This document shows positions 1-62,666 of a DNA stretch of 64,000 nucleotides, one piece after another. The number at the start of each line of letters is the position of its first letter. The stretch's first letter is position 1. The translations under genes were made by a program, and so were the position numbers. Source of the stretch: Nymphon striatum. Its lineage: Eukaryota. The notes under the pieces are model-generated. The model saw only the letters and a program-made list of their open reading frames with translations, was not told the origin of the DNA and did not search any database. The stretch spans positions 415,545 through 479,544 of the forward strand of contig JABFOP010000357.1 in NCBI GenBank assembly GCA_016618385.1, in the 5' to 3' direction.

Positions 1-364
1 CAGGGCTCATCCTAGAGGGCGATTCGGGCGATAACTTCGCCTTGAGTTGATTGACTTCGCTATTTAATTACATCAGGGCGAAATCGACTTCGCTTTTTAA
101 AAAAAAAATTATAAAAAAAAAAACAACATTTTCATTTTATTAGAACCACAATTAATACACTGAGTGCAAAGAGTAGGTATTAAAGTACTGGTATATCTCC
201 CAAGTTGTTTTTACATACTGTAATGAGTGCACATTAGACAAGATAATGTTGAAGAAATTCGCATTGCGAACACTCACTTCTCCGTTAAGTTGCTTCACTT
301 CTCCCTAAATTGAGCTGAGGGAGAAGTCACTTCTCCCTAAAATTTGACCCTAGGATGAGCCCTG
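1..364. mobile_element. MITE copy 1 (about 365 bp) with TIR CAGGGCTCATCCTAG...CTAGGATGAGCCCTG. The left end coincides with the window edge.
   Basis: The terminal inverted repeats are read directly. A second copy lies at 52239..52607 in the opposite orientation. Confidence 0.8.
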
Positions 365-4740: not shown

Positions 4741-4855
4741 CTTTTTGTCAGGAATAAAAATAAAAAAATAGAAAATAAAATAGAAATTTTCATATGCCGG
4801 AATTAAATTTGTTGATTAAGTTAATGTTAACATATATTTATTCTAAATTTTGCAG

Positions 4856-5365: not shown

Positions 5366-7110
5366 GTGAGAAGCAAAGTTAACATTTTGATTATTATCAT
5401 TATAGAGAGGATCTCATTCAGATTCAAATTTATCAATCATCATATCATTCAATTTTATTCAAATGTGTCTATTTATCGTGGATGTTGAAAACGGATACAG
5501 GTACCAAACCATTTATGTGGCTACCAGAAATCTGAAAAAGTCAGAAAAAAGATGTTATTGTTACCTTGTTAGTTTTGAATTTGCTGCAGTCTCTCAGTCT
5601 GACTGCTGTAGCACCATCTGTCGGTTGTGCGATAAACAGAATATAAAATTTGTGCCTGTTGCTTATAACATATATGGAAGCAACGAGCAAGCACTCATTC
5701 CATATCCTCTATTTATTGCATTCAGTCAGATTGATATAGCCTCCAGCTTGCCAGTAAGCCCATGTGAATTTAGTGCAATATATATTAAAAAATATGAAAT
5801 ATTTGAAATATATATATATTGCTTCGTTCATTTCTAGTCGTGGAGGCAGTGTCATTCCGACTTCTCTGTTGGAGCTACAAGCCATGGCAGACAAATTCTA
5901 TTTCCCACACAGCATACCTCGCTGGTGCTTTACTTCACCGTAAGTATGTTGTTTAATGTGCAGAAGGCAGGGTTCCCATTCAGATTTCTAAATGAGGGTT
6001 TTTGTACCCTTTCATCACCCAAAATGAGGGTACAAAAATAAATCTGAGGGTGCAATTTATTAATATGTAGTATTAAAGTCACTGCTGAGTCACCATCTTG
6101 AAGGGAACCATATTTGCTAGTAATTTCGAGTACGTGACAGTACCCTTCAGTACTAAATATCGTACGTGACCAACTGAAAATGAGCGTGAAATACGTACAT
6201 ATGTATGTTAATGGGAACCCTGAGAAGGTGTGACTCTCCTCTACATGGGACCCAATTAACATCTTATCTATTAACCTTATTGCACTAAACTCACATGGGT
6301 TTATAGCAAACTGGAGGCCATGTCAATCTGACTTCTCTGTTAGAGCTACAAACCAATGCATCAAATTCTATTTCTCACACAGCGTACCTTGCAGGTGCTC
6401 CAATTCACCGGAATCTTCCACTCTACTCTTATTCGAATAGTGAAGTGGGCTCTTTAATGTGCAGAGGGTGTGACTCTCCTCTAGAAATTACTCATATTAG
6501 TTTTTATTTATTGAATTAAAAGAGAAAAAAAAAATGATGTCATACACCCTTTAATGCCAATTGAAGCAATTTTTAAAGATATTTTTTAATTCTGAATAGA
6601 GTACTAAAAGTAATGAGTTTTATGTTTTCATTCATGTTTCCATACGAGAGGACAAAATCTAGGCAAAAAAATAAGTAAATTTTTTTCTTAAATCATTTCA
6701 CCTTTATAGCCTTTTTCTATGGCTGTTAGGCTAAAGGCTGTGTCAATCCACCTGAATACAGTGCTTTTCTATCAGAATTACAAGCCTTGTTATGTGAATA
6801 TTATTTTTCACTCCATAACCACAATTTAAGTGTGTTTCTTGGGCACTCCACTTCATCAGATATATTGAGTTCTGTAACAGGCTGAGATTATGTTTCTTCA
6901 CTTCACAGGGGGACCTTCATTTTCATCATATTTGGGGAGAAGCTTAAATAAACAAACATAAAAAGTAAAAAAAAATTCAAACTTGGGTCTGTCCAGCCCA
7001 AAGAGAAGATATTGTACAACTTACTTATCCATACCTTGAAAGATAATTTGAAAATATATGAAATTCAGATATGTATTTTATTTGATAAAAGGTTTATTTC
7101 TTTTCTCCAG

Positions 7111-12429: not shown

Positions 12430-12530
12430 CCATTAATAAAGAGATAGATAACTAACTACCTCTTACCTCTGACAGGAATCGAACCCGCACCTCCCAGCTT
12501 GCAAGTCAGGTATGCTACCATAATACTACA
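12430..12530 (-). mobile_element. tRNA-like fragment, probably a SINE head or tRNA pseudogene (acceptor stem ACCTCTG/CAGAGGT, B box GGTTCGATTCC), in PHKG intron 11
   Basis: A good acceptor stem, D arm and T arm are read. The anticodon arm does not fold, so this is not a functional tRNA. Confidence 0.4.
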
Positions 12531-13435
12531 GAGGTAAACAGTGTGTACCATCATATTCAGATCTGTACTCTCACATTACACCACTGTAGGGAAAAGCTTT
12601 ACCAAGGTGAGAAAGAAGAGGAAATTGAAGTCGTCATTGTTACAGGACTCCACACTACAGTGATAACGTCCAGTAAAGCCGGCTCAAGTCAAACAGTGCA
12701 AATGTAATTGCAGGTGCCGAAGCTGATTGTGAGGATGAAACTGGTCTTGAGGATGAAGTTAGGTCATAAGTGAGAGTTTCCTGTGAGAAGTTGTATCAAA
12801 CATTACATCTGGATGATGTCACAGTTAAACCATAGCGCTATTCCTATATCCAAATGTATTACACAGCTGCATTTTCAATTAAACTCTCTCTTGCCTGTAG
12901 AATTTCAAACCGTCAATATGTAGTCCCTCATTCAATATCTTACATTCCTCGTCCTAATAACCGAACCTCGATCAAGTAGCTCATTCATCAAATTTATAAA
13001 ACCAAACATGCTACAATTGGCAACCCTGGCGTGATGTTTGCCACAAAGTTGACCTGTGAGAGTCTGTAACCATTTGGAACAAAGCTAGAAGAATGTGGAA
13101 TTTGTAGGCAGACAGACAGCAACCAGCTGGAAAGTTTTCTTTGACAGGAATGGCATTATCCATGTCCGATTTCACAGGGTCTCCAGTGTGAACGTACGTG
13201 GGACAGGATCATTTATCCTACAATGAATTTATTTTCCAATACAATACAAGACGCGATAGACGAGATATTTAATCAATATGCAAATGAAACCTAGGGTGAG
13301 TTGCTATACAAATCAGAATATTCAATTTTATTCAAATAAATAGGGTCACCAGTTGTAGCGCAATGTAGGTGCAGGTCACTCTAGTTCCACTAGTTGTGGA
13401 AAGTGACTCAGCCATTGTAGCAATGACTAGCTTAA

Positions 13436-17143: not shown

Positions 17144-17545
17144 CAGGGTTAGACCTAGCTTTTTATACCTATTAGTCGGCACTTTAGCCAAATCAATGCT
17201 ATCTTTAGCCATAACATTTTAAAAAATTGTATCTTTACTAATGAAACAGTATTTATTAGCAAAATGAAATAAAACAATAATTTAAATTGAGGCTAGCACT
17301 CCCTCAATGCTTTACAATAAATAAACATTTTAAATAAATTTAAATAAATAAACAATAAACGCCATTTAAAGCATATGAAAGGTATGGAAATAGTATTTTA
17401 TCCCGAGAATTAATATATTAGGAATTTCAGTGATAATGTGTTCAGAAATGGCAGTCGCCAAAAAATTAGCCAACTTGAAACAAAATTCGCCAAATATGAT
17501 TTTCTTTTGCATTTGGCGACGTGGCAAACGGGGCAGTCTAACCCT
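17144..17545. mobile_element. MITE with TIR CAGGGTTAGACCTAGC / GGCAGTCTAACCCTG and a 5-bp TSD TAATT
   Basis: TIRs and identical flanks are read directly. The AT-rich interior has no ORF. Confidence 0.75.
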
Positions 17546-18999
17546 GTAATTCAACATTGCGAATGTGATCATAAATTGGTGAATTGCACAATCTTCTAGA
17601 GGTATACTCGTAGTTGTTGAAACACATTTTCTGTATTCTCAAATACCCCATGACATACAAATAACTATTTAAAATCTCAATATTGAGTCAAATTAGCATC
17701 TCTTTTTTTCTGTGGTCATTTCTAGAAATTGATTAAAAGTTGTTCAATTTATTCTGTGAGCAATGAAGTTTCCTTGTGTGACATTAAAAGCCTCAGGTAT
17801 GGATAAATTTGCTTGGACTCAAGTTATAGCATGCATGCATAATATAATATTTTTAAATTACTGAAGTCGTGAAGATATGATTTCCAGAGCCTACATTGAG
17901 TTGAAAGTTGTGTGATTATAAGAAATTTTATATTTTCAACATATATACTGCCATAAGTTTTTAGTTTGATTGATTATTTTGTTTTTGTATATAGTAAATT
18001 ATTAAAACTCCTGTCTGTTATTTATTCCCTTTTATATGTTTGTATCTTTTGCTCATTCACATTTTTTTGGGTCAGTTTAAAATTTATTTATAATGTATTT
18101 TTATAAAACTTTCTTTTTATTTTCTAAAAAAGTTATTAGAATTTTTTTTTTTTTTTTTTGTGATTGTTACTCAACTGTTAGCAAAGTCAACCTATTGTTT
18201 TAAACTGTCATTTGTTTTATTTATTGAATTGATGATAGATTTTGTTTGTTTTTCTCTTTTTAAATGCAATAAATAAATTTTGATCTTTAATTATTTGGCA
18301 TTTCATGATAAATAATGTCAAATCATGACCTATTTATGACATATTGGCTAGTAAAATTTATCACAAAATAATCATTTTGAATTTGCCAGTTTCACATCTT
18401 GTTCCATCTCTGCATATCACTTATGTTGTACTGCCATAAAAAATTCAGATATAAGTTTAGACAGCATTGATAGCTTACTAAATCTTTTCAAAAGGCTTGC
18501 AGACAAAATTTTATTTCGATTCTAGCTGAAATAAATCTAGTAAAAGTGTGCAATGTTTTTTCTTAGATTATAATGAACTGATCTCGAACTAGCAAATTGA
18601 ATGCACTGCATATGTTATGGAGGATAAAATGGCGCTTCTTTTTATACCAAAAAACCTTCCCTAACAATTTGTTTATTAAGGCTCAATGTTATTTCGACCA
18701 GACTAACAGGAGACTCGCGATTTTCGACCCAAGGCAAAATTTGGTAGTCAGAAGTAGATTTTATAATGCAGGTCCTTATTAGCAGCATATATTAACAAAA
18801 TTATCATTCACAAAGGTTAGTACAGTATTAGAAGAAACATTATGTTTGATTTCTGTTCTCATTTTGTGTAATTAAGAGTAGAATGAATTTCGATGTGCAA
18901 CCCTATCCGAGTCGTGTTATTTATTGTAAGCTAAAATTAAAACATGGCGCCGTTCATTTTCATTTTGTGTCGTGTGTGTTGGAAAAAGTCTTATAAATC

Positions 19000-23258: not shown

Positions 23259-23404
23259 ACTGCCGGATTTACCCTTGCTGAGGCCCTAAGCTATATCAGA
23301 ATTATATCTGAATATCTGAAGGATATCTGAAGGAGGCTGAGGCCCCTGGAGGCTTGAGGCCCTAAGCTATAGCTTTTTTAGCTTAGAGGTAAATCCGGCC
23401 CTGT
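23259..23404. mobile_element. Second copy of the hAT-like MITE (CAGGGCCGGATTTACC family) with a degraded left TIR and an 8-bp TSD with one mismatch (CAATGTCC / CAGTGTCC)
   Basis: The sequence matches 31369..31536. Confidence 0.65.
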
Positions 23405-29469: not shown

Positions 29470-30700
29470 CCAGTAGATAACCCAACTTTCGCTCCCGTAC
29501 AGTCTGTACGGGAGCGAAAGTTGGGTTATGACGAAGCTAGACAGGAGACGTGTGGATGCATTCGAGCTGTGGTGCTGGAGGAGAGTACAAAAAATACCTA
29601 AAATAACCAATACTGCTGTACTAATGGCAGCCTCACACCCAATGCCACTTGAGGCCAAAGCAGTAAAATGAAATTATCATATTTTGGACATGTGGTGCGG
29701 GAAAATGGGTTGCAGAAACAGGGGCGGATCTAGGGGGTGGATTGGGTGGCTAGCCACCCCCCCCCCTTGCAACTCAAAAATATTCCTGTATAAACATATT
29801 ATTTGTCTTTTTAACGCCCAACGTCATTATTAAATGAACTTCTTAGACGGCAGCATTTGAGCAACAACCTCAAAAAGGTTTCTTCATCTTCATCAGTTAC
29901 ATATTTGATTCAGCATCATGCAGACCTAGATGCAGACACTACATTTTTCCCAAATGTCCCAAGGGAGTTGCCCAGAGTTGCTGAGCATTCTTGCTGTATT
30001 GCCACTTGGAAGCTGTGAAGCCGAAAGGTCTTTTTCTTGTGTGCGGCGTATTCACTCGATTCACTCATAGCTTCGGTCATCTATGTCCACAGATAGATTA
30101 TCAGACCTTTGTGTGATACTAGTGCCATGCATGGTAATATCCCTGTTTCCATTGAGGAAATTGTCAACCGCTTTATTACATTACATCCACGTCGAATGCA
30201 GGGACAAAGTCTTTTCTCGTTGTAGTAGGCCTACTTTTGTCAAACTGCAACATCATGCTTTTTGTGACTACTAGTCTACCATTAATTTTGAACTTAAGGA
30301 TTTAGACGTAACAGTATACTTGAAGTAATGAATTATACTTATAGCAATGGTATATTTTGTGTGTTATTTTTTAAATATTATTATTATGTTTTTTATTGTA
30401 ATCTACAAAATCGAAATGGTTTATCTTTAATTTTGAGTAAAATTTAGAAACCAAAATATGATCTGTTTCACAAAAACGCATGCCGATAGGTGAAGGAAAA
30501 TTCCTAGATCCGCCCCTGAGAAAAGTTTAATGTTGGGAAAGATGGAAGGTCACCGAAGTAGAGGAAGACCACGGACAAGATGGATGGATGGCGTGTTAAA
30601 AGCAACTGGTAAAAGATTGGAAGAGCTAATGTTGGCGGCACAAGACAGAGTTAGCTGGAGGTCAACAGTTCATCAGGTCACCAATGGAAACTAACAACAA
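29470..30700 (+). mobile_element. LINE ORF2 C-terminal fragment (..RRRVDAFELWCWRRVQKIPKITNTAVL... / ..GKMEGHRSRGRPRTRWMDGVLKATGKRLEELMLAAQDRVSWRSTVHQVTNGN*), split by the hAT insertion at 29719..30518
   Basis: The conserved EGxRxRGRPxxRW motif is present. The two halves are contiguous once the hAT element is removed. Confidence 0.65.
29719..30518 (+). mobile_element. Non-autonomous hAT element of about 800 bp with TIR CAGGGGCGGATCTAGG. It carries a decayed hAT C-terminal dimerisation domain (..LPLGSCEAERSFSCVRRIHS..LRSSMSTDRLSDLCVILV..) and is inserted into an RTE-type LINE fragment.
   Basis: TIRs are read directly. The internal frame translation resembles the hAT ERSFS...RLS..L motif. The flanks are the two halves of a LINE ORF2 C-terminus. 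Confidence 0.7.
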
Positions 30701-31234
30701 GCAATGTTCGTATAAAAGTACAAAAGTACAAAAAAAGAAACACAAAACGATAAAATAAAACGATCTTATTCAATGGCTGAAATTGAATTAGGGCCTCGGA
30801 TACAGACAACAGCCACCCTTAAAAAACTGAAGCTGGTTTTTCTTTAAATCCAAGCAGATGTCTGAATATTAGAGAGGAAGTACTACTGTACTATATGTTA
30901 TATGTTATCCACTGAGGATGGCCTTGCAGGCCGAAACGTTTGTTTTGTTTTTTGTTTTTATGTTTTTAAATATACATTATAATGAAGTTCAAGCAAATCG
31001 TCTTTGCTCTCTTATTTATTTCTGGTATAAAGAAATTTACAAATCATTAGAGAGGAAGGCACGAGAACACAACATTTTCAATCATTTATGCCAAATTATA
31101 TACTTAGGGGCCATTCAGAAATTACGTAACGTCGGAGGGGTGGGGTGTCCACCCTAGTTTTACAGAGGGTTGGGGGGTGTTTGGCCAAGTGTTACATAAC
31201 ACCGTCAGGGTTGCCAGAGTGACCTTTTTAAATG

Positions 31235-32150
31235 GATACTCCACTCATTGGGTGTAAAAAAAAAATTCCCAATCCATGACACATATCGCTGGTTGGGAGC
31301 AAAAACATCGTATGTACCATTTTATTCAACTATAAGTCTATGACATAATCTTGTTTGGCAATGAACATCAGGGCCGGATTTACCTATAAGCTAAAAAAGC
31401 TATAGCTTAGGGCCTCAAGCCTCCAGGGGCCTATCAGGGCCCCATTATTCATTCCATATATGTGCACTGTATAATAGAAAAGGGCCACACAATTCAGATA
31501 TAGCTTAGGGCCTCAGCAAGGGTAAATCCGGCTCTGATGAACATGGATTCAATTTTTGCATGGTCGATGTGATTTTCGGCCTTGGGAGTGACACTAGAAG
31601 AGGGAAAAAAGATCGTATGTGCCAGAATATTCTTTTATTTAGAGTGAAAACATCGTAACTGAATTATTTGTGTGAATTCTTGCAAATGAGTTACGATGTG
31701 TTTGCTCTCAGCCAGCGATATATCAAAAAACAATTCCTGATTTGTAAACATTTTTTCTACTTCATTTAATATTTTTAAACGTATTTTAAAATCACCTACT
31801 TTGGATATCACGGCAGATGCCCACCGTACAACCGCATTTATTCAAGCCAAGGAGGAGGGTAAATGATGGTGAGCAGCCTCGGCTCGAATACATATGCTGT
31901 ATCCCTCTTCCACTAGCATAATTCTGAAAAGTATCCTCATCACTCGACGAATCTATATAAACGTCAGCCATCTTGATGAACTACTGAGCATTGAACACGT
32001 CACATATGTGACGTAACAATCAAAAATGGAAGATGCTGTGATATCCAAAGTAGGTGATTTTAAAATACGTTTAAAAATATTAAATGAACTAGAAAATATT
32101 TCAAAAAATCAGGAATTGTTGTTTGATGTATCTATATTTATAATTCTCAA
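31235..32150. mobile_element. Second copy of the 13436 MITE family, lacking its 3' TIR. It carries a nested hAT-like MITE at 31369..31536.
   Basis: The 5' TIR and internal blocks match 13436..13988. Confidence 0.6.
31369..31536. mobile_element. hAT-like MITE of 168 bp with TIR CAGGGCCGGATTTACC and a perfect 8-bp TSD ATGAACAT. It is nested in another MITE.
   Basis: TIR and 8-bp TSD are read directly. An 8-bp TSD is the hAT hallmark. Confidence 0.8.
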
Positions 32151-35880: not shown

Positions 35881-36999
35881 TAAAGCTATAATTTGACCTT
35901 TGACCTTCTTTCTGAAGGTCAAGGCAATGGTCTCATTTTCATGCCCTTGATGTACCAAGTAAATCAGTGTTGCTACAAATACCAAAAAAAATGGAAATTT
36001 GACCTTCGACCCACTTTTTGAAAGTCATGGTCATTGTCTTATTTTAAAGCCCTTTATGTTCCAAGAAAATCAGACTTGGTCTTGTGTTGTTATCTTAAAC
36101 GAATTCTATGATATACGTCAGGGCTGTTCCAGGAAAAAATGTATAGGAGGGGAGGAACGACGAGCTATTTTTAGGGTACCACCTATGGAATTTTAATCAT
36201 TTTTTGGGGCCCCCCCCCCCATAGAATTTAATTTCAATTTTACAATTACAATTTCAATTTAAATACATTTTTTGGCCACTACCAAGAGAATTTTAATTAA
36301 AAAATACCCCCACCCACCGAATAAAAATAGCTCGTCGTTCCCCCCCAGACATTTTTTCCTGGAACAACCCTCAGTGAAAAATACCAAACAAATTTAATTT
36401 GATCTTTGACCTTTTTTCTGATGGTCAAGATAATGGTCTCATGTTCATGCCCTTGATGTACCAAGTAAATCAGTTTTTGTTTCGTCCTTTTATCTTTAAC
36501 GGTTCATAAGATAGCAAGGTCGATGGACTGAAAAACAAACAAACAGACAGACAGACAAACAAAAACAAAAATAATGTCAATTGACATTATTTTTGTTTTT
36601 GGTTTTTGTTTGTTTTTTGTTTAATGAGCATGCTCCCGATCTTCTGGGGAAGTTGTATATATCTTGTGTTGCTACTTTTAACCGATTCTATTATAAATCA
36701 GTGAAAAATACTAAAAAAAAAAAAAAAAAAATGGAAATTTGACCTTCGACCTGCTTTTTGAAGATCACGGGCATTGCTTTATTTTGAATCCTTTGATGTA
36801 CCAAGGAAATCAGATTTGATGTTGTGTTACTATCTTAACGGATTATATGATACACGACAGTGAAAATTACCAAAAAATCATAATTTGACATTTGACCTTC
36901 TTTCTGACGGTCAAGTCTCATTTTCATGCCCTTGATGTACCAAGTAAATCAGTTTTTGTGTTGTCCATTTATCTTTAACGGTTCCCAAGATACATAAAA
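35881..36999. repeat. Tandem array of about 5 units, each about 120-130 bp (AATTTGACCTTYGACC...GGTCA...CATGCCCTTGATGTACCAAGTAAATCAG...). It is interrupted by the MITE at 36119..36374 and a palindromic (CAAA/CAGA)n block at 36530..36620.
   Basis: The units are read directly at 35881, 35996, 36395, 36735 and 36885. Confidence 0.75.
36119..36374. mobile_element. Palindromic MITE with TIR CAGGGCTGTTCCAGGAAAAAATGT, inserted inside the 125-bp tandem array
   Basis: The two halves are near-perfect reverse complements. The insertion interrupts one satellite unit. Confidence 0.65.
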
Positions 37000-39406
37000 A
37001 AAAAACTTACAAAATACACATGACATTTCTTTTTACCTTACAGCTTACTATTTGACCTCCAGCGACGTCCAGTGACCTCCGAGGTCACTCCCTCCTATCC
37101 AGGAACATCCGCGGGGTCAAACTGCACCCACTAATGGAAAGTTTGGCCTTCAAAGGCCAGCGGTTTGGCCGGCCATAGGCTACAAACAAACACACATACA
37201 CAATCTCCTATACAGTATAGATAAATATATAAATAAATCATCAAATATAAATCATCATCACCGAACATATGTATAATATTTACATGTACGTGTTTGCTGA
37301 TGATGATTTGGCATTTATTTTAATTAACTTTTACCGCTTGAAGTTTCAAAGAATACTGTATTTTTAGTCTAGTGTCACCAAAATAGATGTCGTTTTTGAA
37401 AAGTATATTTTATCTTTTCATAATTTTTGTGAAATTACTTATTATTCATTTTATTTTCTGTTTTCTTTTTTTCAAATCACAAACTTTCCCATCATTTCTT
37501 GTTCTGACGTACATGATACAATATTTGTTTACTTTTCATCGATCATCCGAAAGGCTCTTTTATTTGATGACTTGATTGAATATTTTCGGTTTTCGTGCAA
37601 AAATGGGTTCTGATATTGGGAAAAAATTCTCAAACTTTTTATTTTATTAACCTTATAAGGCTTATTGCACTAAACGAGTGGTATAAGATCTGGATTCTGG
37701 GCTAGAGTGACTCAAGTTCCAATCTCATTTGATCCCTCCACTCTTTACGATTACCTACGACTACGTCAACTGTGTATTCCTCTCTCAAAGATAGGGACTT
37801 GCGTATTTTTTCAAATTTCAATGAAATAAAATTTAAATAATTACATTAAAATGAACTAACTCTAAGCTTTAATTTGAGCCATAGAACATGACATAAGCAC
37901 TACATAGTTCTCGAGATATGTTGAATTAAAGTTGTGAAAAATAACAATTTTTCCAGTTATAGTTAGCATGGCGACACGCATAGGCAAAAATGGCAAATTT
38001 CATAGTAAAAAAAAAAATTATAGTTTTTTATTTTTAAAAAATAAAATAACAATTCACAAGCAAGAAATGGGTATCAATACGTAGCTACGGCTTTCTACTT
38101 TTAGAATTGACATTCATGAGAATCAGTGCTGCTCATTCCACGACAAAAAACGGACTTTTTCTGTGTCAGCCTGCACGTTTTATTTTTGGACAATAATCCA
38201 TAAGCGATTTTCCGAGTAACGAAAACACAGCGCCCTCTCACGATTTGCAAGTACCTATCAAAGGACAAAGTAGATGCTATCTATCTATGTATTCTTGTCG
38301 TGCTTAGAGGCACATACGACCATGGCAAAACCTTTCTACCTTCCTCTCTCTTTCGCTAAACTTAAGAAGCGGCCTGTTCCCAAGAACTCCAGCCTCCTAC
38401 ATTCTTTCCTTTTTCACCACGTTGTCTTTGGCCTCCCATTGCAGATTGCTTCTCCTTCCTGGTGGTGCCCATTTTAGTGCCATTTTTGTATCCTCTTTTG
38501 GATCTTTTCTGAGGATGTGGCCGATCCATCTCCATCTTCACTCTATAATCTGCGTGCCTATGTAGATGCAGGCTGGTTTAATTAATTAAGTCTTAAGAGA
38601 GAAAACATGCTGTCTCCTAGGTAGGGTGTTAATGAAAGTCCCGTGTAAAGGAGAGTTGCACCCTCTGCATGTTAAAAACACACATAACTATTCGAACAAG
38701 ATTAGAGTAAAAGGTCCTGGTCAAGTGGAGCACCTGCGAGGTTTGCTAATTTTTGGCTGTAGCATGAGAAATAGAGCTCGCTTGTCATGGCTTGTAGTTC
38801 TGACAGAGAAGCATTGCATTCAGTCAGATTGACTACAGCCTCCAGCTTGCTATAAACCCATATGATCGAATATGATAATTTCAATTGGATGATTTCCCAC
38901 TTGAAATAAAAACTATGTGTTGATATACTTCTTTCCATATGAGGCTGATTACTGATATGCATTGTAACAGGAAGATATTTCAATTCTGCACGAAAAGGTG
39001 GATACAACCCTTGTAATCGTACGGTTAGGAGCATGGAAGTGAAATTGGATTGACGTGCTCAGTTCCAGTACAGTACCGAAACTAATATTAACAATGGCAA
39101 ATTTCATGATTTGTGTAGGATTGTAGATTTGATTGTCCACTCGTTGTATGAGGTTGGTTAATATTCGAGGTTTTGGTAAAAAAAAATTATATTTTAAAAG
39201 AATATTTTAAAATATTATTTTTAATTAAGCCTAAAATTTGATTGGTGTTGTTTATTTTAGTGAATTTTTTCAATAGATAATAAAAATGATTTTACTTTTA
39301 AATAATTTTAGAATATGCAGAATTTATCTTGTTATGAATTATAAATATTAAAGTTATATCACCTTAAGATATTTCATGCTACAGCAATTATATCTCTTGT
39401 ATTGCA

Positions 39407-39849
39407 GTGATCAGCGAAATGATTTTTTACAGAAGAGGATGTCTATCATTTATGATTATAACGAGTGTTTCATTTATATTTGGAATGTTTTTTCACCGCT
39501 CATTCTTCTGCAATAGAATTGTGCTCTATAGCCCTTTGGAGGTTCCTAATAGAGGATTTCAGAATGATATTTATCCGCAAGCTGTCAAGATGGTAACTAA
39601 ATCCAATAATGTTGAAGATGTTGAGCCTGTTATTATGAAAAGAAGCATGTCTTCAGTTGCTAAGTCATCATTTCACAAGAAACTTGTGCATTTAGACTTG
39701 AAGGGAGCACCTCCAAAGATAAGCTATCTTGAGAGTCTGTTGCCTTTGTTAAAGAAACAAGGTGCTACAGGGTTGATTATTGAATACGAAGATTCATTTC
39801 CATTTGAAGGTGAAATTTATGAATTAAGTTCTACAAAGCCTTATTACAA
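39407..39849 (+). CDS. HEXDC: Hexosaminidase D-like (GH20 family) first coding exon. It has an N-terminal hydrophobic extension that is a possible signal anchor, then [56 protein letters not shown].
   Basis: Long ORF. It matches the HEXDC N-terminus ([44 protein letters not shown]). The donor is aa|gtaagt at 39850. Confidence 0.8.
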
Positions 39850-41228
39850 GTAAGTATTACATTATAAAACTTTTTCAAATATGCAAATAAGTGGAATAAG
39901 ATAAATGCGGATAAATGAAATGAAAATACTGGCAGGAAAAAAAAAAATTGAGACAAACTGACATCTTGTAAAATATAAAAAAATAAGCAAACCAAATAAA
40001 AATATTGGCCCAAATAAAATCACTTTGGGTGTTCAACTTGGGTTTGAGGTCACAGATGTAGAGCATTTCATATATCAGGCAATCAAACTTAGTCTTACAT
40101 TTTTTCAGCACTTTTAATCAATGGGGTCAATGGATCAGTGAGTGTTATAGGGTTCGTACGGGTCCTTAAAAACTATGAAAGTCCATAAATGTTTATCTGC
40201 TGAAATTAAGTACATAATTTGAGAAATATCCAGAAATTTTAGGAAATATTTCAAAGTCAATGAAAGTCCTTAAAAATCTTATTTCTATTCTCATCAAAGT
40301 CCAGATTAGCAAATTTGTAGTACGGAAATAAATATTTTCTTCATCCGTAAATTCCGCTGCACCCGGCCTAAACAAATTCCGCTGTCGCACCTCGTGTCAT
40401 TGTTTACCTTCAAAATGCCTAAGATGACGTGATCGGTTCGGGTAATCTCTGCACACCAATGGTGATCGCTATATTGTCCCCAAGTGTGTTTCCTTGTTCA
40501 ACCACCTATAGCACAGAACAGTGGATTAAGTCACCATTTCTCACAAAGAAGCGCTGCATTTCAGTCGGATTTACACGGCCTCCAACTTGCCAAAATAATT
40601 TCCGAAGTATCTGACATGGAATGCAGGTCCGACAAATTGGAATATAATGGAACACTACGACAATGGTCCTTAAAAAACTGTTGGATTTGATCCTTGAAAG
40701 TCCTCAGAAGTCCTTAAATTTTGCTTCCAGTTTTGAGTGGGAACCCTGTGTTAGGTATATTCTCAATATAAGTAAAAATAACAAAACTAGATATAATACT
40801 AAATAGCAATATGAATTTTAACAAAAGAGGTATATGTTGCCCTCTGATCTCTACTACCTGTGATTATACTTTGTAGATAGATCTCTTTCTCTCAAATGTA
40901 GTTGTTGATGTAAAAGGTAAAGTCTGTGTGCTTCTTGTTCTTTTCTCTGAAAAACTGGCTATATGCTCCTAGAATAATTTGAAAGTATTATATGAATATT
41001 ATGTATATACAAGTTTGTATCAGAAATAACCCAACGTAGAATTGACCTTCTATGATAATCTTGTCCATTTATCATATCAGATGATTTTGCCAGAACTATT
41101 TTGACACACTGAACGGACTGTGGCTTATTTGGGATAATATTATGTTATATCTTTTTTATGTTGATTCTGAGTCTGATAAATTTTTTTATAGAATTTTATA
41201 CAATTAATTATTTTTTCGTTTTTATCAG

Positions 41229-41535
41229 AGTGGAACTGAAGAATTTTCTCCGAAGTGCATCAATATTGGGATTTGACATCATTCCTTTAGTGCAAACATT
41301 TGGTCACATGGAATTTGCATTGAAACTTCCCCGTTTCAAGAAATTAAGAGAAAACTCATTATATCCCAATAATCTGTGTCCATCTCAAATGAAATCAATG
41401 GAACTAGTAAAAGAAATAATTTCCCAGGTTGTGTCTTTTCACAAAGAGTTCCGAATTAAACAATTGCATATTGGATGTGACGAAGTGTATCATTTGGCCG
41501 AATGTGAAATTTGTTCTAAAAGTGCTTGCCAATAG
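41229..41535 (+). CDS. HEXDC: HEXDC-like exon 2 ([34 protein letters not shown]...KQLHIGCDEVYHLAECE..). The reading frame fails near 41515 and hits a stop at 41533.
   Basis: ttatcag acceptor at 41228. It matches [33 protein letters not shown]...RLHIGCDEVYYLGEGE. Confidence 0.7.
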
Positions 41536-41782
41536 TCTATATGGAAATTGGACTTTGTTTCTGAAGCATGTGAAAGCTGTTGCTGAGCATGTGCAAAGTG
41601 TACACTGGCTTGACTCCGATCATTTGGGATGACATGCTTCGTAAGATTCCTGAAGAAACCATCAGAGTGCACAATGTACAAGATGTTGTGGAGATAATGG
41701 TTTGGAATTATCATCCGCATGTTCCCTGAGTCTCTTAATGAGGTAACTTGGATGAAATATAAGAATTTAGTTTCGCCATAAA
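41500..41782 (+). pseudogene. HEXDC: HEXDC-homologous stretch read only by hopping frames 1 to 2 to 0 to 1 to 2, with four +1 shifts. The fragments VLANSLYGNWTLFLKHVKAVAEHVQSV, then LTPIIWDDMLRKIPEETIRVHNVQDVVEIMVWNYHPH, then MKYKNLVSP, then FRHKMWAAS are all homologous to consecutive HEXDC segments.
   Basis: Overlapping ORFs in three frames (41158..41535, 41429..41632, a third in frame 0, 41783..). Each continues the HEXDC alignment (..LSHMRAVASGV.., ..VTPLVWDDMLRDLPED.., ..LLMQKYRRCGFPQLWAASAFKGATG). Confidence 0.6.
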
Positions 41783-42517
41783 ATGTGGGCTGCTAGCTCT
41801 TTTAAAGGAGCAACCGGAGTTGATCAAATGATGACATCTCCTCAGTATCACCTTAGAAATCATAAGATATGGATGGAAACTGCATTCAACCACAGTCACG
41901 ACTTTTCTTTTAAAGGTATTGCACTCACTGGATGGCAACGTTATGATCATTTCTCTGTAATGTGTGAATTACTTCCTGTTGCAATACCAAGCTTAATTTC
42001 TAATCTTCGTTATTTGAATAATCCTGATTTGTCTGACGAACAACTGATAGATGAAGTTCGGGATGCTTTGAAGTGCAACAACCCGCTTCCTTTAGATATT
42101 CCAAATTCTACTTTTATTGCTGAATGTTCTTTTCCTGGAAGTTCTATTTACAAGTCAATTTTGGAAGTGTATAATTTGAATCTTAATTATTTTTACATAA
42201 TAAAAAACAGTCATATGGCTGGTTGGATGACTAGTTATCAAGTGCTCAATTCGTATAGTAACCCTGACCATGTTAGGCTTGCCATGAGAGGCATTCGAGG
42301 AATAACTCAACGATATGCTTTTCTGGCAACAAGTTTACCACAGCAGCTCAGTGAAATTTACGAACAAGAAACCATTGATGAATGGTATTTTATGTACTTT
42401 GGAAATATTAAAAGTGATTTACGAAAGTTGGAATGGCATGCTGAAAAACTGATGTCACAAACAACTTGGCCTCGAAGATATTTCTCGCATAAAGATCCTG
42501 TTTCTACAATATGAAAA
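41771..42517 (+). CDS. HEXDC: HEXDC-like C-terminal region in one open frame (FRHKMWAASSFKGATG...[26 protein letters not shown]...TWPRRYFSHKDPVSTI*)
   Basis: A 243-aa ORF that matches HEXDC LWAASAFKGATG...[25 protein letters not shown]. Confidence 0.75.
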
Positions 42518-44617
42518 AATGATGTTTTTGTGGAGATTGAACATGATAAACTTTCAGGTATATATATGTATGCTTATATACTTTTTTTTTCTTCCAACTG
42601 AATACATCTTCGATATATTCTCACATTATGTCATGCACATTAGTTTATTCATATCGGATTAATTTTATTCATTTGATTTTATATTTTAGAATTTTTTTCT
42701 TTTAAAGTCATAAGGTATTTTTAGCAGTTAAATAGTTTTTATGTTAAAAATGTAAAATATCTAAAGGACTTATGCATTAAAAAAAATGACTCTTTTCATG
42801 TTTATCTCAAAGTGTGTTCCTACTGTTTACCCAGTTCCCAAACAAACACATTTTGCCTTTTTCTTGTTTTTGTTTTATCTTTAAAAATAACCTTACCCTT
42901 TGAGTGACAACGTCAGAGAATCTATCTACCTGCAGTGTGTCCGATCACGTAAAAGTGTACGTGATTCACGTTTATTTCGAAAAATCGCGTACATAATTTT
43001 GTTTAGAAACGTGCTAGCACGTACACAGAATGATGTATGCTGTGTTTAAAATCATTCAATTTCATGTGGTAGATCTTAAAACTAATTCGTTCCTATATTT
43101 AATTCACCTTAAGTGAAAAAAGTGGAACAATGTGCCTGTTCTGTAGAGAGATTCACTGATCAGGAAAATTGTTAAGCATTCATATGAAGACTTAATTGAT
43201 AATATGAGTGCTTTCAAGTGTTTTGTTATAATTTGAATATAAATATTGATTTTGAATAAAAAAACTGTGTACCCTCTATTTTTTCTCTGTACCCCCAACT
43301 TTCACTCACTTTCAGTCACTGAAATCAGTGGACACACTGACCTGAATGCAAATGAACATACAATTCCGCATGTGCACTAACCTCTAAAAGGGTCATTGAC
43401 TAAGTCCAAGTCATAAAAAGTTGGTTTTTCTCTGCATAAGTCCTTTCATTTCCCATAAGTTGCTTCTCGACTTGAAACGGATCAACTTCAAAAAGACATA
43501 CATCAAATGATTCATGTTTATTTTTCAACACTTGACCAGCATTCACATACAATTGTGTCTCCACTCAAAACGTATTTTATCACTTACGTTTTTATGAAAT
43601 CACATAAACACTAGACAAGTGAACCTCGCAGATGATGGGCTCAGCCCCAAATATCAAACAAGCCTTGCAAATTCCTTTCTTTTAAACATTGAAATAATTT
43701 TTCAGCAATTTCCCTCCCATTAATTTCTTTAAATGTCTTTAAATCTTCTAAAATACCCAATTCAACTTTATTTGTCAATATGTTGATGTCGTCCATGTTG
43801 GATTTGTGTTATCAACCAATCAACGCCGATTGGGTAAAGGTGAAGAACGAAGTGAGAAAGCATTCTCTAACCTCTTCAAGATCGCAGTTCTTTGTGCTGT
43901 AAGGTTTTGGCTAAGTATCAGTGATAAGCTGTTCAATAAATTGTGCGTCTGCAATAATCAACACAAACTCCAGCCATTATGTCCATTCTATTTTGTTATA
44001 GTCAAATTTCTCCTATGCTAAATGTGGTTTTATTTCAAAATGTGATTTTTGTTGAATCTCATTACTATTTGTTTCTTCTAGTCATCTTGTTATCATCTTT
44101 GTTGATCACACCTTTATTTTTTTGTATACCTTATCACCAAGTTTCGTCCAAAGAAATGAGTTTTATTTTAATTACATTATAATTCCTATTAAAAGCAAAA
44201 TAGCATTCGTACTTTTCCCATGAATACCCAGCATTAAAAACTATGTAATGATGCGAATAGTATTCGTGATGCAATCTCAGTTTTATGAGAGGTAAATTCA
44301 TAAAGGTTTATAAGAAAATGTTATCATGAAAAAATATTAATTATAAATTAAACAAAGCAAATATATTTTCAGATCCTTATTTTTTTTTGCTGTAATTTTA
44401 ATATATATTTAATATCTGTGGTTTGGAAAAATAAATGTATGGTGAAGATGTTTATATAGAATTATCATGTTGTGTTTTTTAAAGATATACATAATACTTT
44501 TCGCATACCATTTTATTTTCTGAAATAAAGTTCTTTCATAATTGTAATCCACTTTTGTTTTTCAATATTTTAATGACATTATTTCTTCGTACTCAAGCAC
44601 ATATTGGTGAAGGTCAG

Positions 44618-44843: not shown

Positions 44844-45432
44844 CTGTAACGGCGAAGGTCAGTTATGACTTCATCACGACCTTTCCATGACTAGTGTTTA
44901 TTTATCACAGATATAAAAATTGAAACAATGTGCTTAGTTAGGGGTTACGCTGGCGTCTGCCATTTCCGCATTTTGTGATTTTTTTATCAATTTGGCATAA
45001 AAAAAATACGACTGGCGAATTTCTTTTGGCATAGAAGTTTTTTTTTTTTTTTTATTATTTTCTTGCCACCAAGGCAAGACATTAAAGAAATGTACAGAAA
45101 ATACAACAGATGTAATGAATTTTGTGGCAAAACAGTAAAAGTTATATAAGTGACAATACTTTAATACAACCGCTTTATGAAAAAACTTAATAAAAATACG
45201 AAAGAGTTTCAAATCGAAATAGAGTAGAGTGAAAATTCAAAACACTAAAAGTAGTCATTTTTTCCCAGGAAATGCACCAGAGGCCACCATACGACTTCCG
45301 ATTTTCAAAAATGTTCTGGGGGGGGGGGGGGGCGACAGGCCCTAAAGTATATTTGGCTAATAAAAATCAAAAGCCAGGGGAACCCCTGCTTAGTAGAAAT
45401 CATAATTTATAATTTCTTAAAATTGACTCCAT

Positions 45433-49458: not shown

Positions 49459-50377
49459 AATCCATACACAGGGCTCGAATTTAATTTATTTTCCTACTCG
49501 CAAAGAATTGCGAGTACCTTATATCTCAACTCGCAAAATTGAAAACTAACTTGCAAAAATAACCCGCAACAAAAATGAGCTTAAAACTGATGGTTTATGA
49601 ATATTAATAAAGCCAGGGATACGGTTTTTAAAGCCATTTATTTAAAAAAAATAAAAATATAACAAACGTTTCGGCCATCTAGGCCATCATCAGTGGTTAA
49701 CAAAAATCAAATAAAACGAAATGGTAAAACATCCAACTTTAAAGAATTTTTTTAAATGATATGCAAAAAGGAGAGAAAATAAAAAAAAAATAAAGAAAAT
49801 AAATAAAAATTCAGTTTAAGATTGCCAGGGGATAGGAAGAAAGTGTGTCGTTTAGTGAAGGTAAGTCACAGTAAAGTTTTGACTGTTAGGTCGGACGCGG
49901 TCTGGGCGAACGTCGATACCTTTCTAATATAAGTCTGACATTTTGAAGTGCATTTATGATTCCCCGTTATCATTATCAAGCAAGGCATAAAAGTGCAACT
50001 AATACAGATCTGAATTTTAACCGAGTAAAAGTATCAGGCATCAATCTAATCGGACAGGCACATAGCCAAATTTTCGCGTATAGATTACCGCAGTTACGAT
50101 CGTAGACTAGTCCGAGTCGGCATTCGTCTTACGTCATTATTTACATATGGCGACTCGGAAATAGGTGAAAATAACGAGACATTGAGTGTTTATTGGACGA
50201 CGAGACCTGTTACTTAAATTGCACACACGAGTTCGGCATTGTTCTATTTCAACTTTGTTCCCGTTTTAGAATGAGGTTCAATTTTTTCTACTAGCAAAAA
50301 TTTGCGAGTGCTTGCAAAATCTTCTCGCATTTTTGAAAAACCACTCGCAATTTGCGAGTGTTAAATTCGAGCCCCTG
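49459..50377. mobile_element. Non-autonomous DNA element of about 920 bp with TIR CAGGGCTCGAATTTAA and a 5-bp TSD ATACA. It lies in a HIRA intron, 53 bp from the exon at 50430.
   Basis: TIRs and TSD are read directly. The interior contains the repeated motif ctcgcaa...ttgcgagt. Confidence 0.75.
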
Positions 50378-52148: not shown

Positions 52149-52238
52149 CTGAAACACGAAACACAAAATTGATAATTTCAACTTTTATACATCCATACAA
52201 TTTTATTCATCAAAACATTGAGAGCAACTACAAGATGT

Positions 52239-52607
52239 CAGGGCTCATCCTAGGGTCAAATTTTAGGGAGCAGTGACTTCTCCCTCAGCTCAATTTAGGG
52301 AGAAGTTAAGCAACTTAACGGAGAAGTGGGTGCTCGCGATGCGGATTTCTTCAACATTATCTTGTCTAATTTTCCCTCATTACAGTATGTAAAAACAACT
52401 TGGAGATATACCAGTACTTTAATATCTACTCTTTGCACTCTGTGTATTAATTGTGGTTCTAATGAAATGAAAATGTTGTATTTTCTAAAAATTTTTTTTT
52501 TTTTTTTTTAAAAAGTGAAGTCGATTTCGCTCCGATGTAATTAAATAGCGAAGTCAATCAACTCAAGGCGAAGTTATCGCCTGAATCGCCCTCCAGGATG
52601 AGCCCTG
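52239..52607. mobile_element. MITE copy 2 of the same family, inverted relative to copy 1. It is flanked by a 5-bp TSD GATGT.
   Basis: It is more than 90% identical to the reverse complement of 1..364. GATGT is read directly on both flanks (52234-38 and 52608-12). Confidence 0.85.
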
Positions 52608-53299
52608 GATGTGTGAAAAAACTAGTAGTGATCAATTGGCAGTGCATCTATTATGGCTCTAACAATAATAATAAAATCAATAACAAATTTGGCAAAGATT
52701 TTTGGATTATGCTCATTATCAAAATTTACAATTTTAGCACAACATTTTTTTATTATAAGAACATACAATTGAAACTTGGGTTACAATTTATTTTTATAAA
52801 TACACTTTGTATTAAAGGTCCACTAAAGTGGGAAAAAAAAAAGTCTAAATCGTGTGAAAAAATTATTAATTAGGTCCATACTAATGCACAGAATGCATTT
52901 TGGTAAAATTAATCAGCCGATTTTAGCAAGAAAAACGGTCTCAAACTTCAAGAATTCACACTTGAGTCGTGACGTCACACAGGGTACTAATAGAGTCGGA
53001 ATGGCGAATAGTGAGGCCAGATTACCAGTGACACTCTTTCCTTGTCTGAGAATAAATATTACTAGTGAAGATGAACTAAGCTCGTGTGAAGAATTTGATC
53101 ACCATCATCACTTTCGTTGAGAAATTGGAGATTGAAGCAAGTACACACTTAATGACGTCATAGCTCAGCAAATCATAACAAACATATCATTTCACTTTTA
53201 ATATTTTCACATCGAAAAACAAACTGGTACAACTGATAAATATAGCATTTAGGAATTCATTTTTGAAAAGTGAGTATGAGCACTTTAGTGTCCCTTTAA

Positions 53300-53615
53300 C
53301 CCTTTCCGTGCGGAATAAAAATGGCCGAATATATTTATATTTGCGGAATTTATTTTGACTTTTTTGATTGTTATGACATTTGCGCTTTTTATTATTATTT
53401 TAAATAATTAAATTCATAGACTTGACCTACCATCTATTGAAAATTTAGGTAAACAATAGTTTAATATGTGGAGACGAGATGGGGCCACTAGTGATTCAGG
53501 CGAATTTATGCTCTCTCCGCAAATAGAAACTGCATGGCTTGGCGAATACGTTCGCCCGCCGCAAATATTAATCAAAATGTTATGGCGAATATATTCGCCT
53601 CCCGCACGGAAAGGG
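53300..53615. mobile_element. piggyBac-like MITE of 316 bp with TIR CCCTTTCCGTGCGG, flanked by TTAA on both sides
   Basis: TIRs are read directly. TTAA lies at 53296-99 and 53616-19, and the TTAA target duplication is diagnostic of piggyBac. Confidence 0.8.
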
Positions 53616-58396: not shown

Positions 58397-58569
58397 CTAT
58401 ACAGGGACAAAATAAATTTAATAAAAGAGATCATCACATTTAACCCTTAGAACACATTACCCCGTTATAGCGGGATACAGTGTTTGTTTCTTCAACCCGT
58501 TACCCCGCGAAAGCGAGGTGTGACGAATGCATCTAGACTATTATCAATAGAAGCGTATTTTTCATTGGT

Positions 58570-59178
58570 GTGAAGTCGAAACATTCAACCAATCAAACGA
58601 CAGAAAACAAATGCACATGGCATTGCCTTGCAAATGGCGACACTTGTAATTTTTATATTATTTTCTATCGAATAAGCGATGAGTTCTCAAAAACGGAAAA
58701 TGCCAGAAAACGGCGACGTTTCTCGGAAGACGGCCCGATGTTCCGCGCAACAAGTGGCAGCTATTTTGGTAGGCAGCTATTTTTTTTAGTGGCAGCTATT
58801 TCTGATGACGAAGAAACACTCGGTTTTGACGAAGATTATCCGTCCGATGAGTTGGAAACTGATTCGGATGACAATGTTGACAATGATAATGATTCCGAAA
58901 GTGATAGTGATAATGAAAATCCCGCGGATCGTTTACCTGTAAGACCTGTTATTGCGGACAATCTTGATTCTGGTTGGAATAAAAAATATGTTGGTGTAAA
59001 TAAACGATTTTTGAGAGCAGAGACAGAGACAAATCCAAAAAACATTCCAGTTGATTTTGATGTGGCAAAAATAGCAAATTTAGTACATACACCCAGTGAA
59101 ATCCTAAAGTGCTTCAGGAAGCCAGGGTTGAGTGTATTTTTTAACCAGACGGTGAGGGTTCTAAGGGTTAAGATATGA
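58570..59178 (+). other. A 202-aa ORF with a very acidic D/E/S-rich middle region (..SDDEETLGFDEDYPSDELETDSDDNVDNDNDSESDSDNENP..), inside a HIRA intron on the opposite strand. It is possibly TE-derived and its function is unknown.
   Basis: An ORF only. There is no recognisable catalytic motif and no downstream exons were found. Confidence 0.3.
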
Positions 59179-62374: not shown

Positions 62375-62666
62375 CAGGGCTCGAAATTAACAGTTGTCCG
62401 CTTGTCCCGGACAAGTCAAAATTGAGAAGGACAACCAACCTCTGTCACTGCAGTTGTCCAGGGGCAAGTGCTCAAATATTGTGTTATTCTCGTAATAAGT
62501 TACACAAATTCGTAAATTAGGTGAACTGGTCAATTTAAGCAACCCTTTGAGAGTGCTCAGGAATCTTAACAAATCTTGGGGCAAGCAATTTTATTTTGGG
62601 ACAACTAAATTATTATAGGTGCTTGTCCCTGGGACAACCACCTCTAAAATTTAATTTCGAGCCCTG
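62375..62666. mobile_element. MITE of about 290 bp with TIR CAGGGCTCGAAATTAA, related to the 49459 element, and a 5-bp TSD CAAGT. It lies in a HIRA intron.
   Basis: TIRs and TSD are read directly. Confidence 0.75.

Follow-up and report, generated by a model that had tools for sequence, protein, structure and literature searches.

Non-autonomous elements with CAGGG ends and 5-bp target duplications in Nymphon striatum, very probably of the hAT5 type

The CAGGG-ended elements in a 64,000-nucleotide stretch of the Nymphon striatum genome (assembly GCA_016618385.1, contig JABFOP010000357.1, positions 415,545 to 479,544 of the forward strand; hereafter the window) very probably belong to the hAT superfamily as non-autonomous elements of the hAT5 type, whose target duplications measure 5 bp. 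At least six elements in the window, namely families B, C, D and F, the second copy of family A and the element at 42933-43339, combine CAG(G/T)G termini with inverted terminal repeats 10-16 bp long and with target duplications that match exactly over 5 bp (Table 1). One of these, family F, contains the remnant of a hAT transposase gene, and homologues of the window elements in other organisms are also flanked by 5-bp duplications. The use of a hAT transposase by families A-D is suggested by their termini, by the length of their duplications and by analogy with family F. As repeats of an invertebrate genome the elements are ordinary, and they represent an already described variety of hAT MITE. 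Families A-D and F themselves are undescribed as far as we could tell, and provide five or six candidate repeat families.

Inverted-repeat elements and their target duplications

The window is AT-rich (~33% G+C) and eukaryotic, with exons of a Hira/WD40 gene, a protein kinase and a GH20 hexosaminidase-D-like gene, together with LINE and integrase fragments. Two scans were made of this DNA, an unbiased one for inverted-repeat pairs with flanking direct repeats, and a second limited to YAG(G/A/T)G termini, for which 100 local shuffles served as the control. At a loose repeat threshold the number of candidate pairs was at chance level, with 32 pairs observed and a shuffle mean of 28.7. Repeat pairs with YAG(G/A/T)G ends and an exact duplication of at least 5 bp were observed nine times, whereas the shuffles (n = 100) gave 0.05 on average and never more than 1. 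Family F, the element at 42933-43339 and the two elements with 6-bp duplications had been missed in the original prediction and were found by this systematic scanning.

The original prediction had proposed that several elements of the window have inverted repeats at their ends, hAT-like CAGGG termini and true 5-bp duplications in common, and direct reading of each element bears this out. The termini of the 5-bp elements read CAGGG(C/T/G) or CAGTG, and show the hAT-type arrangement of a YARNG end accompanied by subterminal repeats. The elements also have the generic structure of a MITE, being short and having a target duplication outside their terminal repeats, and contain no Pfam domains. A Pfam scan of the 104 stop-free frames of at least 70 aa in the window matched Hira, WD40, Pkinase and GH20 but no transposase, which agrees with the earlier view that the autonomous partner is absent from the window.

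A flanking repeat of a given length is specific to its register, and the 5-bp duplications are therefore not shortened readings of 8-bp ones. The flanks of the 5-bp window elements do not match at 8 bp, where they show at least three mismatches, and a duplication of 8 bp is present in family H alone. The length of the duplication is specific to the family, with 8 bp in both copies of H (7/8 in the second). The first of these copies had already been recognised as an 8-bp hAT MITE distinct from the 5-bp elements, and its duplication, ATGAACAT, confirms this. The three clean 5-bp duplications originally reported are real, but the elements listed there carry four, GATGT, TAATT, ATACA and CAAGT. 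Most of the element bounds could also be kept, except that the start of family C had been set 10 bases too far to the left, at 49459, and the end of family B one base short, at 17545. The element at 36119-36374 had been counted as a member of the same group; we find no target duplication of any length around it, and its membership is therefore unsupported.

Table 1. Inverted-repeat elements of the window and the coding remnant within family F. Positions are those of the window.
Feature	Position	Strand	Length (bp)	Terminal repeats	Target duplication	Remarks
Family A MITE, copy 1	1..364	-				reverse complement of copy 2, 92% identity
Element with CAGGGTTCCCATT ends	5968..6222	+		CAGGGTTCCCATT	AGAAGG (6 bp)	single copy
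Family B element	17144..17546	+	403	CAGGGTTAGAC (11 bp)	TAATT (5 bp)	
Family H, copy 2	23262..23403	-			GACACTGA/GACATTGA (8 bp, 7/8)	diverged (78%)
Family F, internally deleted hAT element	29719..30518	+	800	CAGGGGCGGATCTAGG (perfect, 16/16)	AGAAA (5 bp)	
Decayed hAT transposase C-terminal remnant	29975..30219	+				within family F
Family H, canonical hAT MITE	31369..31536	+		CAGGGCCGGATTTACC / CAGAGCCGGATTTACC	ATGAACAT (8 bp)	
Inverted-repeat element	36119..36374	+		(C/G)AGGG(C/T)TGTTCCAGGAAAAAATGT; (C/G)AGGG(C/T)TGTTCCAGG...	none of any length	long imperfect repeat
CAG(G/T)G-ended element	42933..43339	+		CAGTGTGTCC (10 bp)	ACCTG (5 bp)	single copy
Element with TAGGGGTTAC / CAGGGGTTCC ends	44939..45388	+		TAGGGGTTAC / CAGGGGTTCC	CTTAGT (6 bp)	single copy
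Family C element	49469..50377	+	909	CAGGGCTCGAATTTAA / CAGGGGCTCGAATTTAA	ATACA (5 bp)	
Family A MITE, copy 2	52239..52607	+	369	CAGGGCTCATCCTAG / CAGGGCTCATCCTGG (= CAGGGCTCATCCT(A/G)G)	GATGT (5 bp)	
Family D MITE	62375..62666	+	292	CAGGGCTCGAAATTAA (perfect, 16 bp)	CAAGT (5 bp)	

Of families A-D only A is present in more than one copy within the window, with two copies, and B, C and D have one each. The GATGT duplication of the second copy of A lies at 52234-52238 and 52608-52612. For the first copy the left flank and duplication cannot be read, as the window begins at the first base of the element. Such an exact coincidence may be due to the contig or scaffold having broken at the repeat, and not to a random cut. 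The two copies differ by 8%, and the family is therefore not very young. Family A also contains a subterminal near-palindrome, GGGAGCAGTGACTTCTCCC (GGGAG(A/C)AGTGACTTCTCCC), at 52266-52284, analogous to the subterminal palindrome of the F-type ends described below. The first 20 nt of family A gave no matches in metagenome and prokaryote-genome contigs, and in viral contigs scanned with the A and C/D termini we observed single chance matches only.

Subterminal hexamer repeats occur between four and eight times in families A-D. In families C and D a family-specific hexamer is repeated 7-8 times, in both orientations and no more than 130 nt from each end, with seven copies of ACTCGCAA/TTGCGAGT close to both ends of C and eight copies of TTGTCC/GGACAA close to both ends of D. 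The sets in A and B are weaker, those of B being of the GCCAAA/TTAGCC type. Subterminal hexamer repeats in both orientations are usual at hAT ends, and the sets would fit transposase-binding sites. Family C may be a composite element, or one with a nested insertion. The element at 42933-43339 is probably of the same kind as the other 5-bp elements.

The transposase remnant of family F and its relatives

The plus strand of family F contains a decayed remnant of the C-terminus of a hAT transposase, disrupted by one frameshift, one in-frame TAG and a 9-bp duplication, which reads ...FFPNV.RELLSILAVLPLGSCEAERSFSCVRRIHS(W)LRSSMSTDRLSDLCVI..AMHGNIPVSIEEIVNRFITLHPRRMQGQSLFSL-stop. The top Pfam match of the reconstructed peptide was Dimer_Tnp_hAT (PF05699), with E = 0.0048 and 17.1 bits. 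This lies below the gathering score of 21.4, and the identification of the remnant as hAT therefore rests on its homologues. The peptide is 94% identical, at 100% coverage, to P0106, a protein of Nymphon striatum with the annotation 'repressor of the inhibitor of the protein kinase', and 60-65% identical to two further proteins (P0107 and P0108), both of which reach the PF05699 gathering score. Using the snow crab C-terminus as a tblastn query, the F remnant was recovered with E = 2e-19. A profile search returned 2,434 relatives. Of the named ones, those in coral and snow crab are annotated "52 kDa repressor of the inhibitor of the protein kinase", which is a usual label for hAT-derived proteins, and one from a tunicate is annotated "HAT C-terminal dimerisation domain". 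Derivation from a hAT transposase is seen for family F only, families A-D being without coding sequence. In F the last ~80 codons of the transposase gene have been kept, and a retained 3' end of the transposase gene is the usual signature of an internal-deletion derivative.

In snow crab we identified a decayed element of 3.3 kb (locus L059) that starts with CAGGGGCGGATCCAGGGGGGGTGACAGGGGTGACTAGTCACCCCCC (CAGGGGCGGATCCAGGGGG...GGTGACTAGTCACC) and is homologous to the 5' end of family F. In this element a zinc-finger-like segment is encoded along with the core of DUF4371 (28.7 bits) and with Dimer_Tnp_hAT, whose 26.2 bits exceed the gathering score. Its target duplication is unreadable because the 3' end is eroded and lies inside a microsatellite. 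ENA long-read host contigs contain internally deleted copies with F-type ends and hAT C-terminal remnants. Exact 5-bp duplications flank four of the five complete F-type copies, the window copy included: AGAAA in the window, AATAT in L060, CACAG in L063 (of which L064 is a duplicate locus) and GTCTT in L202. The fifth copy, L058, has no target duplication. Family F thus represents a hAT lineage with 5-bp duplications.

The 5' ends of the F-type elements carry a subterminal palindrome ~25-45 nt in, the pairing of which is kept through compensatory changes. In family F this palindrome is GGGTGGCTAGCCACCC, at 29744-29759. The variant GGTGGCTAGCCACC is found in the window and in L063 (about 4755-4770), GGTGACTAGTCACC in the snow crab element (about 7658-7675 of L059) and GGTGAATTTTCACC at the 5' ends of L058 and L202; the 5' end of L060 has ...TTCATC. 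The F-type ends are alike while the C-terminal transposase remnants are only ~59% identical (crab compared to L063). The terminus of 16-17 nt, CAGGGCTCGAAATTAAC, and the F-type end, composed of a 16-nt repeat and the subterminal palindrome, are both found in Nymphon striatum, in snow crab and in the hosts of several metagenome series. One tentative reading, which we consider unlikely but worth naming, is that a hAT5 lineage has been spreading horizontally among marine invertebrates, or that the transposase recognises a structured (hairpin or cruciform) subterminal DNA site which is under strong constraint.

The terminus of families C and D in metagenome contigs

The terminus common to families C (at 49469) and D (at 62375), CAGGGCTCGAAWTTAA, also heads MITE families in host-associated metagenome contigs, where we found it at no fewer than 120 loci. 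These matches are not due to chance, since they cluster in a few host-associated sample series, with several distinct subterminal sequences in common. By comparison, the same 17-mer gave just 16 single matches, consistent with chance, when 596 Gb of prokaryote genomes were scanned. Among the matches listed there are 43 distinct complete metagenome copies, of which 21 are flanked by an exact 5-bp duplication, seven more by a 4/5 match and one by a 6-bp duplication, with no exact 8-bp duplication in the set. Permuting the flanks among the elements gave an expectation of 0.5 exact 5-bp cases for these 43 copies. In the 8-bp register at least three mismatches were observed in 42 of the 43, again among the matches listed. 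The statistical check of duplication length recommended with the original prediction, run here on look-alikes from other organisms, therefore favours 5 bp.

When family D was aligned with its metagenome look-alikes, the similarity was confined to the 17-nt terminus and a subterminal repeat of the (T/C)GTCCC type, and the internal sequence was not alignable. We also observed a subgroup of ~219 bp with eight copies (L080, L082, L108, L122, L123, L128, L154 and L155), which has the CAGGGCTCGAAATTAA terminus and ACTCGCAAA repeats, like the 3' end of family C. The eight copies have no recognisable 5-bp duplication, although the homology stops exactly at CAGGG/CCCTG, and one of them, L108, matches at 7/8 positions over 8 bp.

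In 524 kb of metagenome loci, among the matches listed, we found no element of 1.2-9 kb with the C/D terminus at both ends. Long ORFs adjoining the terminus at some of these loci are bacterial chance matches, for example to SecA and TPR proteins. An autonomous partner with A-D termini was found neither in the window nor in the 524 kb of metagenome loci (120 loci, among the matches listed). The search for a coding element with matching repeats, also recommended with the original prediction, gave hAT-coding relatives for family F and, in the window and these metagenome loci, none for families A-D.

Known systems and alternative origins

These elements had originally been set apart from hAT on the premise that hAT makes 8-bp duplications. 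This premise is wrong, as descriptions of hAT groups that duplicate 5 bp (hAT5) or 6 bp (hAT6) go back to 2007 (PMC9004415; PMC12730594). In a passage of PMC9004415 that cites Putnam 2007, hAT5 "is unusual in having 5 bp TSDs", and the sources for the group, as cited in these two papers, are Kapitonov & Jurka 2007 (Repbase Reports 7:1188) and Putnam et al. 2007. DNA/hAT-hAT5 is also a routine RepeatMasker class in animal genome papers. The elements of the window resemble hAT5 in their hAT-type termini, short terminal repeats, 5-bp duplications and occurrence in marine invertebrates, with a hAT transposase seen for the F lineage. In contrast to hAT5, families A-D are without any coding sequence, and the F-type transposase combines DUF4371 with the hAT dimerisation domain and has a P52rIPK-like annotation. 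By the length of their duplications the F-type elements would work like hAT5, and both membership of the Repbase hAT5 clade and an independent arrival at 5 bp are possible.

Canonical hAT MITEs (Ac/Buster/Tip), of which family H is an example, resemble these elements in their CAGGG/YARNG ends, in terminal repeats 10-16 bp long and in having subterminal repeats, and the termini of H (CAGGGCCGGATTTACC) and F (CAGGGGCGGATCTAGG) agree at 12/16 positions. They differ in having a duplication of 8 bp and not 5 bp, the length being consistent within each family. The hAT6 group makes duplications of 6 bp, a length unlike that of the 5-bp families and one that is found in the elements at 5968-6222 and 44939-45388. 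With their CAGGG/TAGGG ends these two elements may be of hAT6 type, in which case duplications of 5, 6 and 8 bp would all be found among the hAT-like elements of the window. Family-specific duplications of three lengths in one window illustrate the variable stagger length within the hAT superfamily.

A hAT transposase binds the terminal and subterminal repeats of its element, cuts the element out and inserts it with a stagger, the length of which is that of the duplication. For the elements described here, the enzyme would be a hAT transposase of the DDE (RNase-H-fold) type, the gene for which lies elsewhere in the genome. It would bind the CAGGG-type terminal repeats and the family-specific subterminal hexamers, excise the element and re-insert it by staggered strand transfer. 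In this lineage the strand-transfer sites would be 5 nt apart instead of 8, and repair would leave the 5-bp direct repeat. Family F would be an internal-deletion derivative in which the 3' end of the transposase gene has been retained, and families A-D would have lost all coding sequence, keeping the cis-acting ends alone.

The serious residual alternative is that families A-D use a non-hAT or undescribed enzyme, and thus belong to another, possibly undescribed, cut-and-paste superfamily that shares the CAGGG ends and the 5-bp stagger, with F the only hAT element. The lack of coding sequence in A-D would allow for this, as would the failure to find their partner in the window or the metagenome loci and the fact that family D and its metagenome look-alikes are not alignable past the 17-nt terminus. 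However, family A has an architecture in common with the F-type ends, consisting of CAGGG...ATC(C)TAGG and a subterminal GGG...CCC palindrome, and the ends of H, with its 8-bp duplication, of F and of A-D all match the hAT YARNG pattern. We know of no other described superfamily that pairs these ends with 5 bp, and hAT5 accounts for every feature without extra assumptions. On balance we regard a separate superfamily for A-D as improbable. Counted against the hAT5-type assignment are the absence of a partner for A-D from the DNA searched, the Pfam score of the F remnant below the gathering score, the F-type copy without a duplication (L058), the ~219-bp subgroup, and the presence of B, C and D as single copies in the window.

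The original prediction had favoured a Transib-like or another superfamily on account of the 5-bp duplications. Transib also duplicates 5 bp, and a RAG1-like transposase mobilising these MITEs would be compatible with the failure to find the A-D partner. However, Transib ends characteristically start with a CAC...TG heptamer-like (RSS-like) sequence and the elements have RAG1-like coding, whereas all termini here are CAG(G/T)G and none has such an end. The duplications are AT-rich or mixed (TAATT, AGAAA, ATACA), and the 104 frames of the window compared to Pfam contain no RAG1-like or Transib domain. The sole coding remnant inside a 5-bp CAGGG element, that of family F, is hAT. The absence of the CAC terminus together with the nature of this remnant leads us to reject a Transib origin, which we consider very improbable. 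Elements with CAGGG ends and a 5-bp target duplication should be filed under hAT (hAT5-type) and not under Transib.

It is scarcely credible that the elements are ordinary 8-bp hAT MITEs, with 5-bp flank matches that arose by chance or are decayed 8-bp duplications. One metagenome copy, L108, points in this direction with its 7/8 match, but the duplications are register-specific, and the window elements, like 42 of the 43 metagenome copies among the matches listed, have at least three mismatches at 8 bp. The exact 5-bp cases also far exceed chance, at 21 against 0.5 expected in those copies and nine against 0.05 in the shuffled window, and the 8-bp reading is refuted for the copies examined. 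LTRs end in TG...CA, and the elements here have CA...TG ends and perfect inverted repeats of 11-16 bp, sizes of 290-400 bp and subterminal repeats in both orientations, with a transposase remnant in family F. Solo LTRs of retrotransposons, whose precise ends and 5-bp duplications make them a known source of false MITE calls (PMC3278479), are almost certainly not what we observe, as the termini do not fit.

Beyond annotation the significance of these families is small. They offer repeat candidates for a genome group in which repeats are poorly classified; unclassified repeats make up 43% of the assembly of the other sea spider genome published (PMC12220506).

Several further features of the window were also observed. 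An internal piece of family C (49646-49713) is 81% identical to a repeat fragment at 30892-30959, kin to the CACTGAGGATGGCC...GAAACGTTTG inverted-repeat arms. Two TTAA-flanked, piggyBac-like elements with CCCTT... terminal repeats are located at 53300-53615 and 58444-59167, the latter overlapping a 202-aa ORF at 58570-59178. A tRNA-Ala gene (anticodon TGC) was detected on the minus strand at 12463-12536 by both Rfam and ARAGORN. Finally, the best protein-database match of the hexosaminidase-D-like exons (39368-42511, plus strand) is 80% identical and comes from a Logan assembly, with the next matches at 32-36%, compared to the 94% match of the F remnant to Nymphon striatum.
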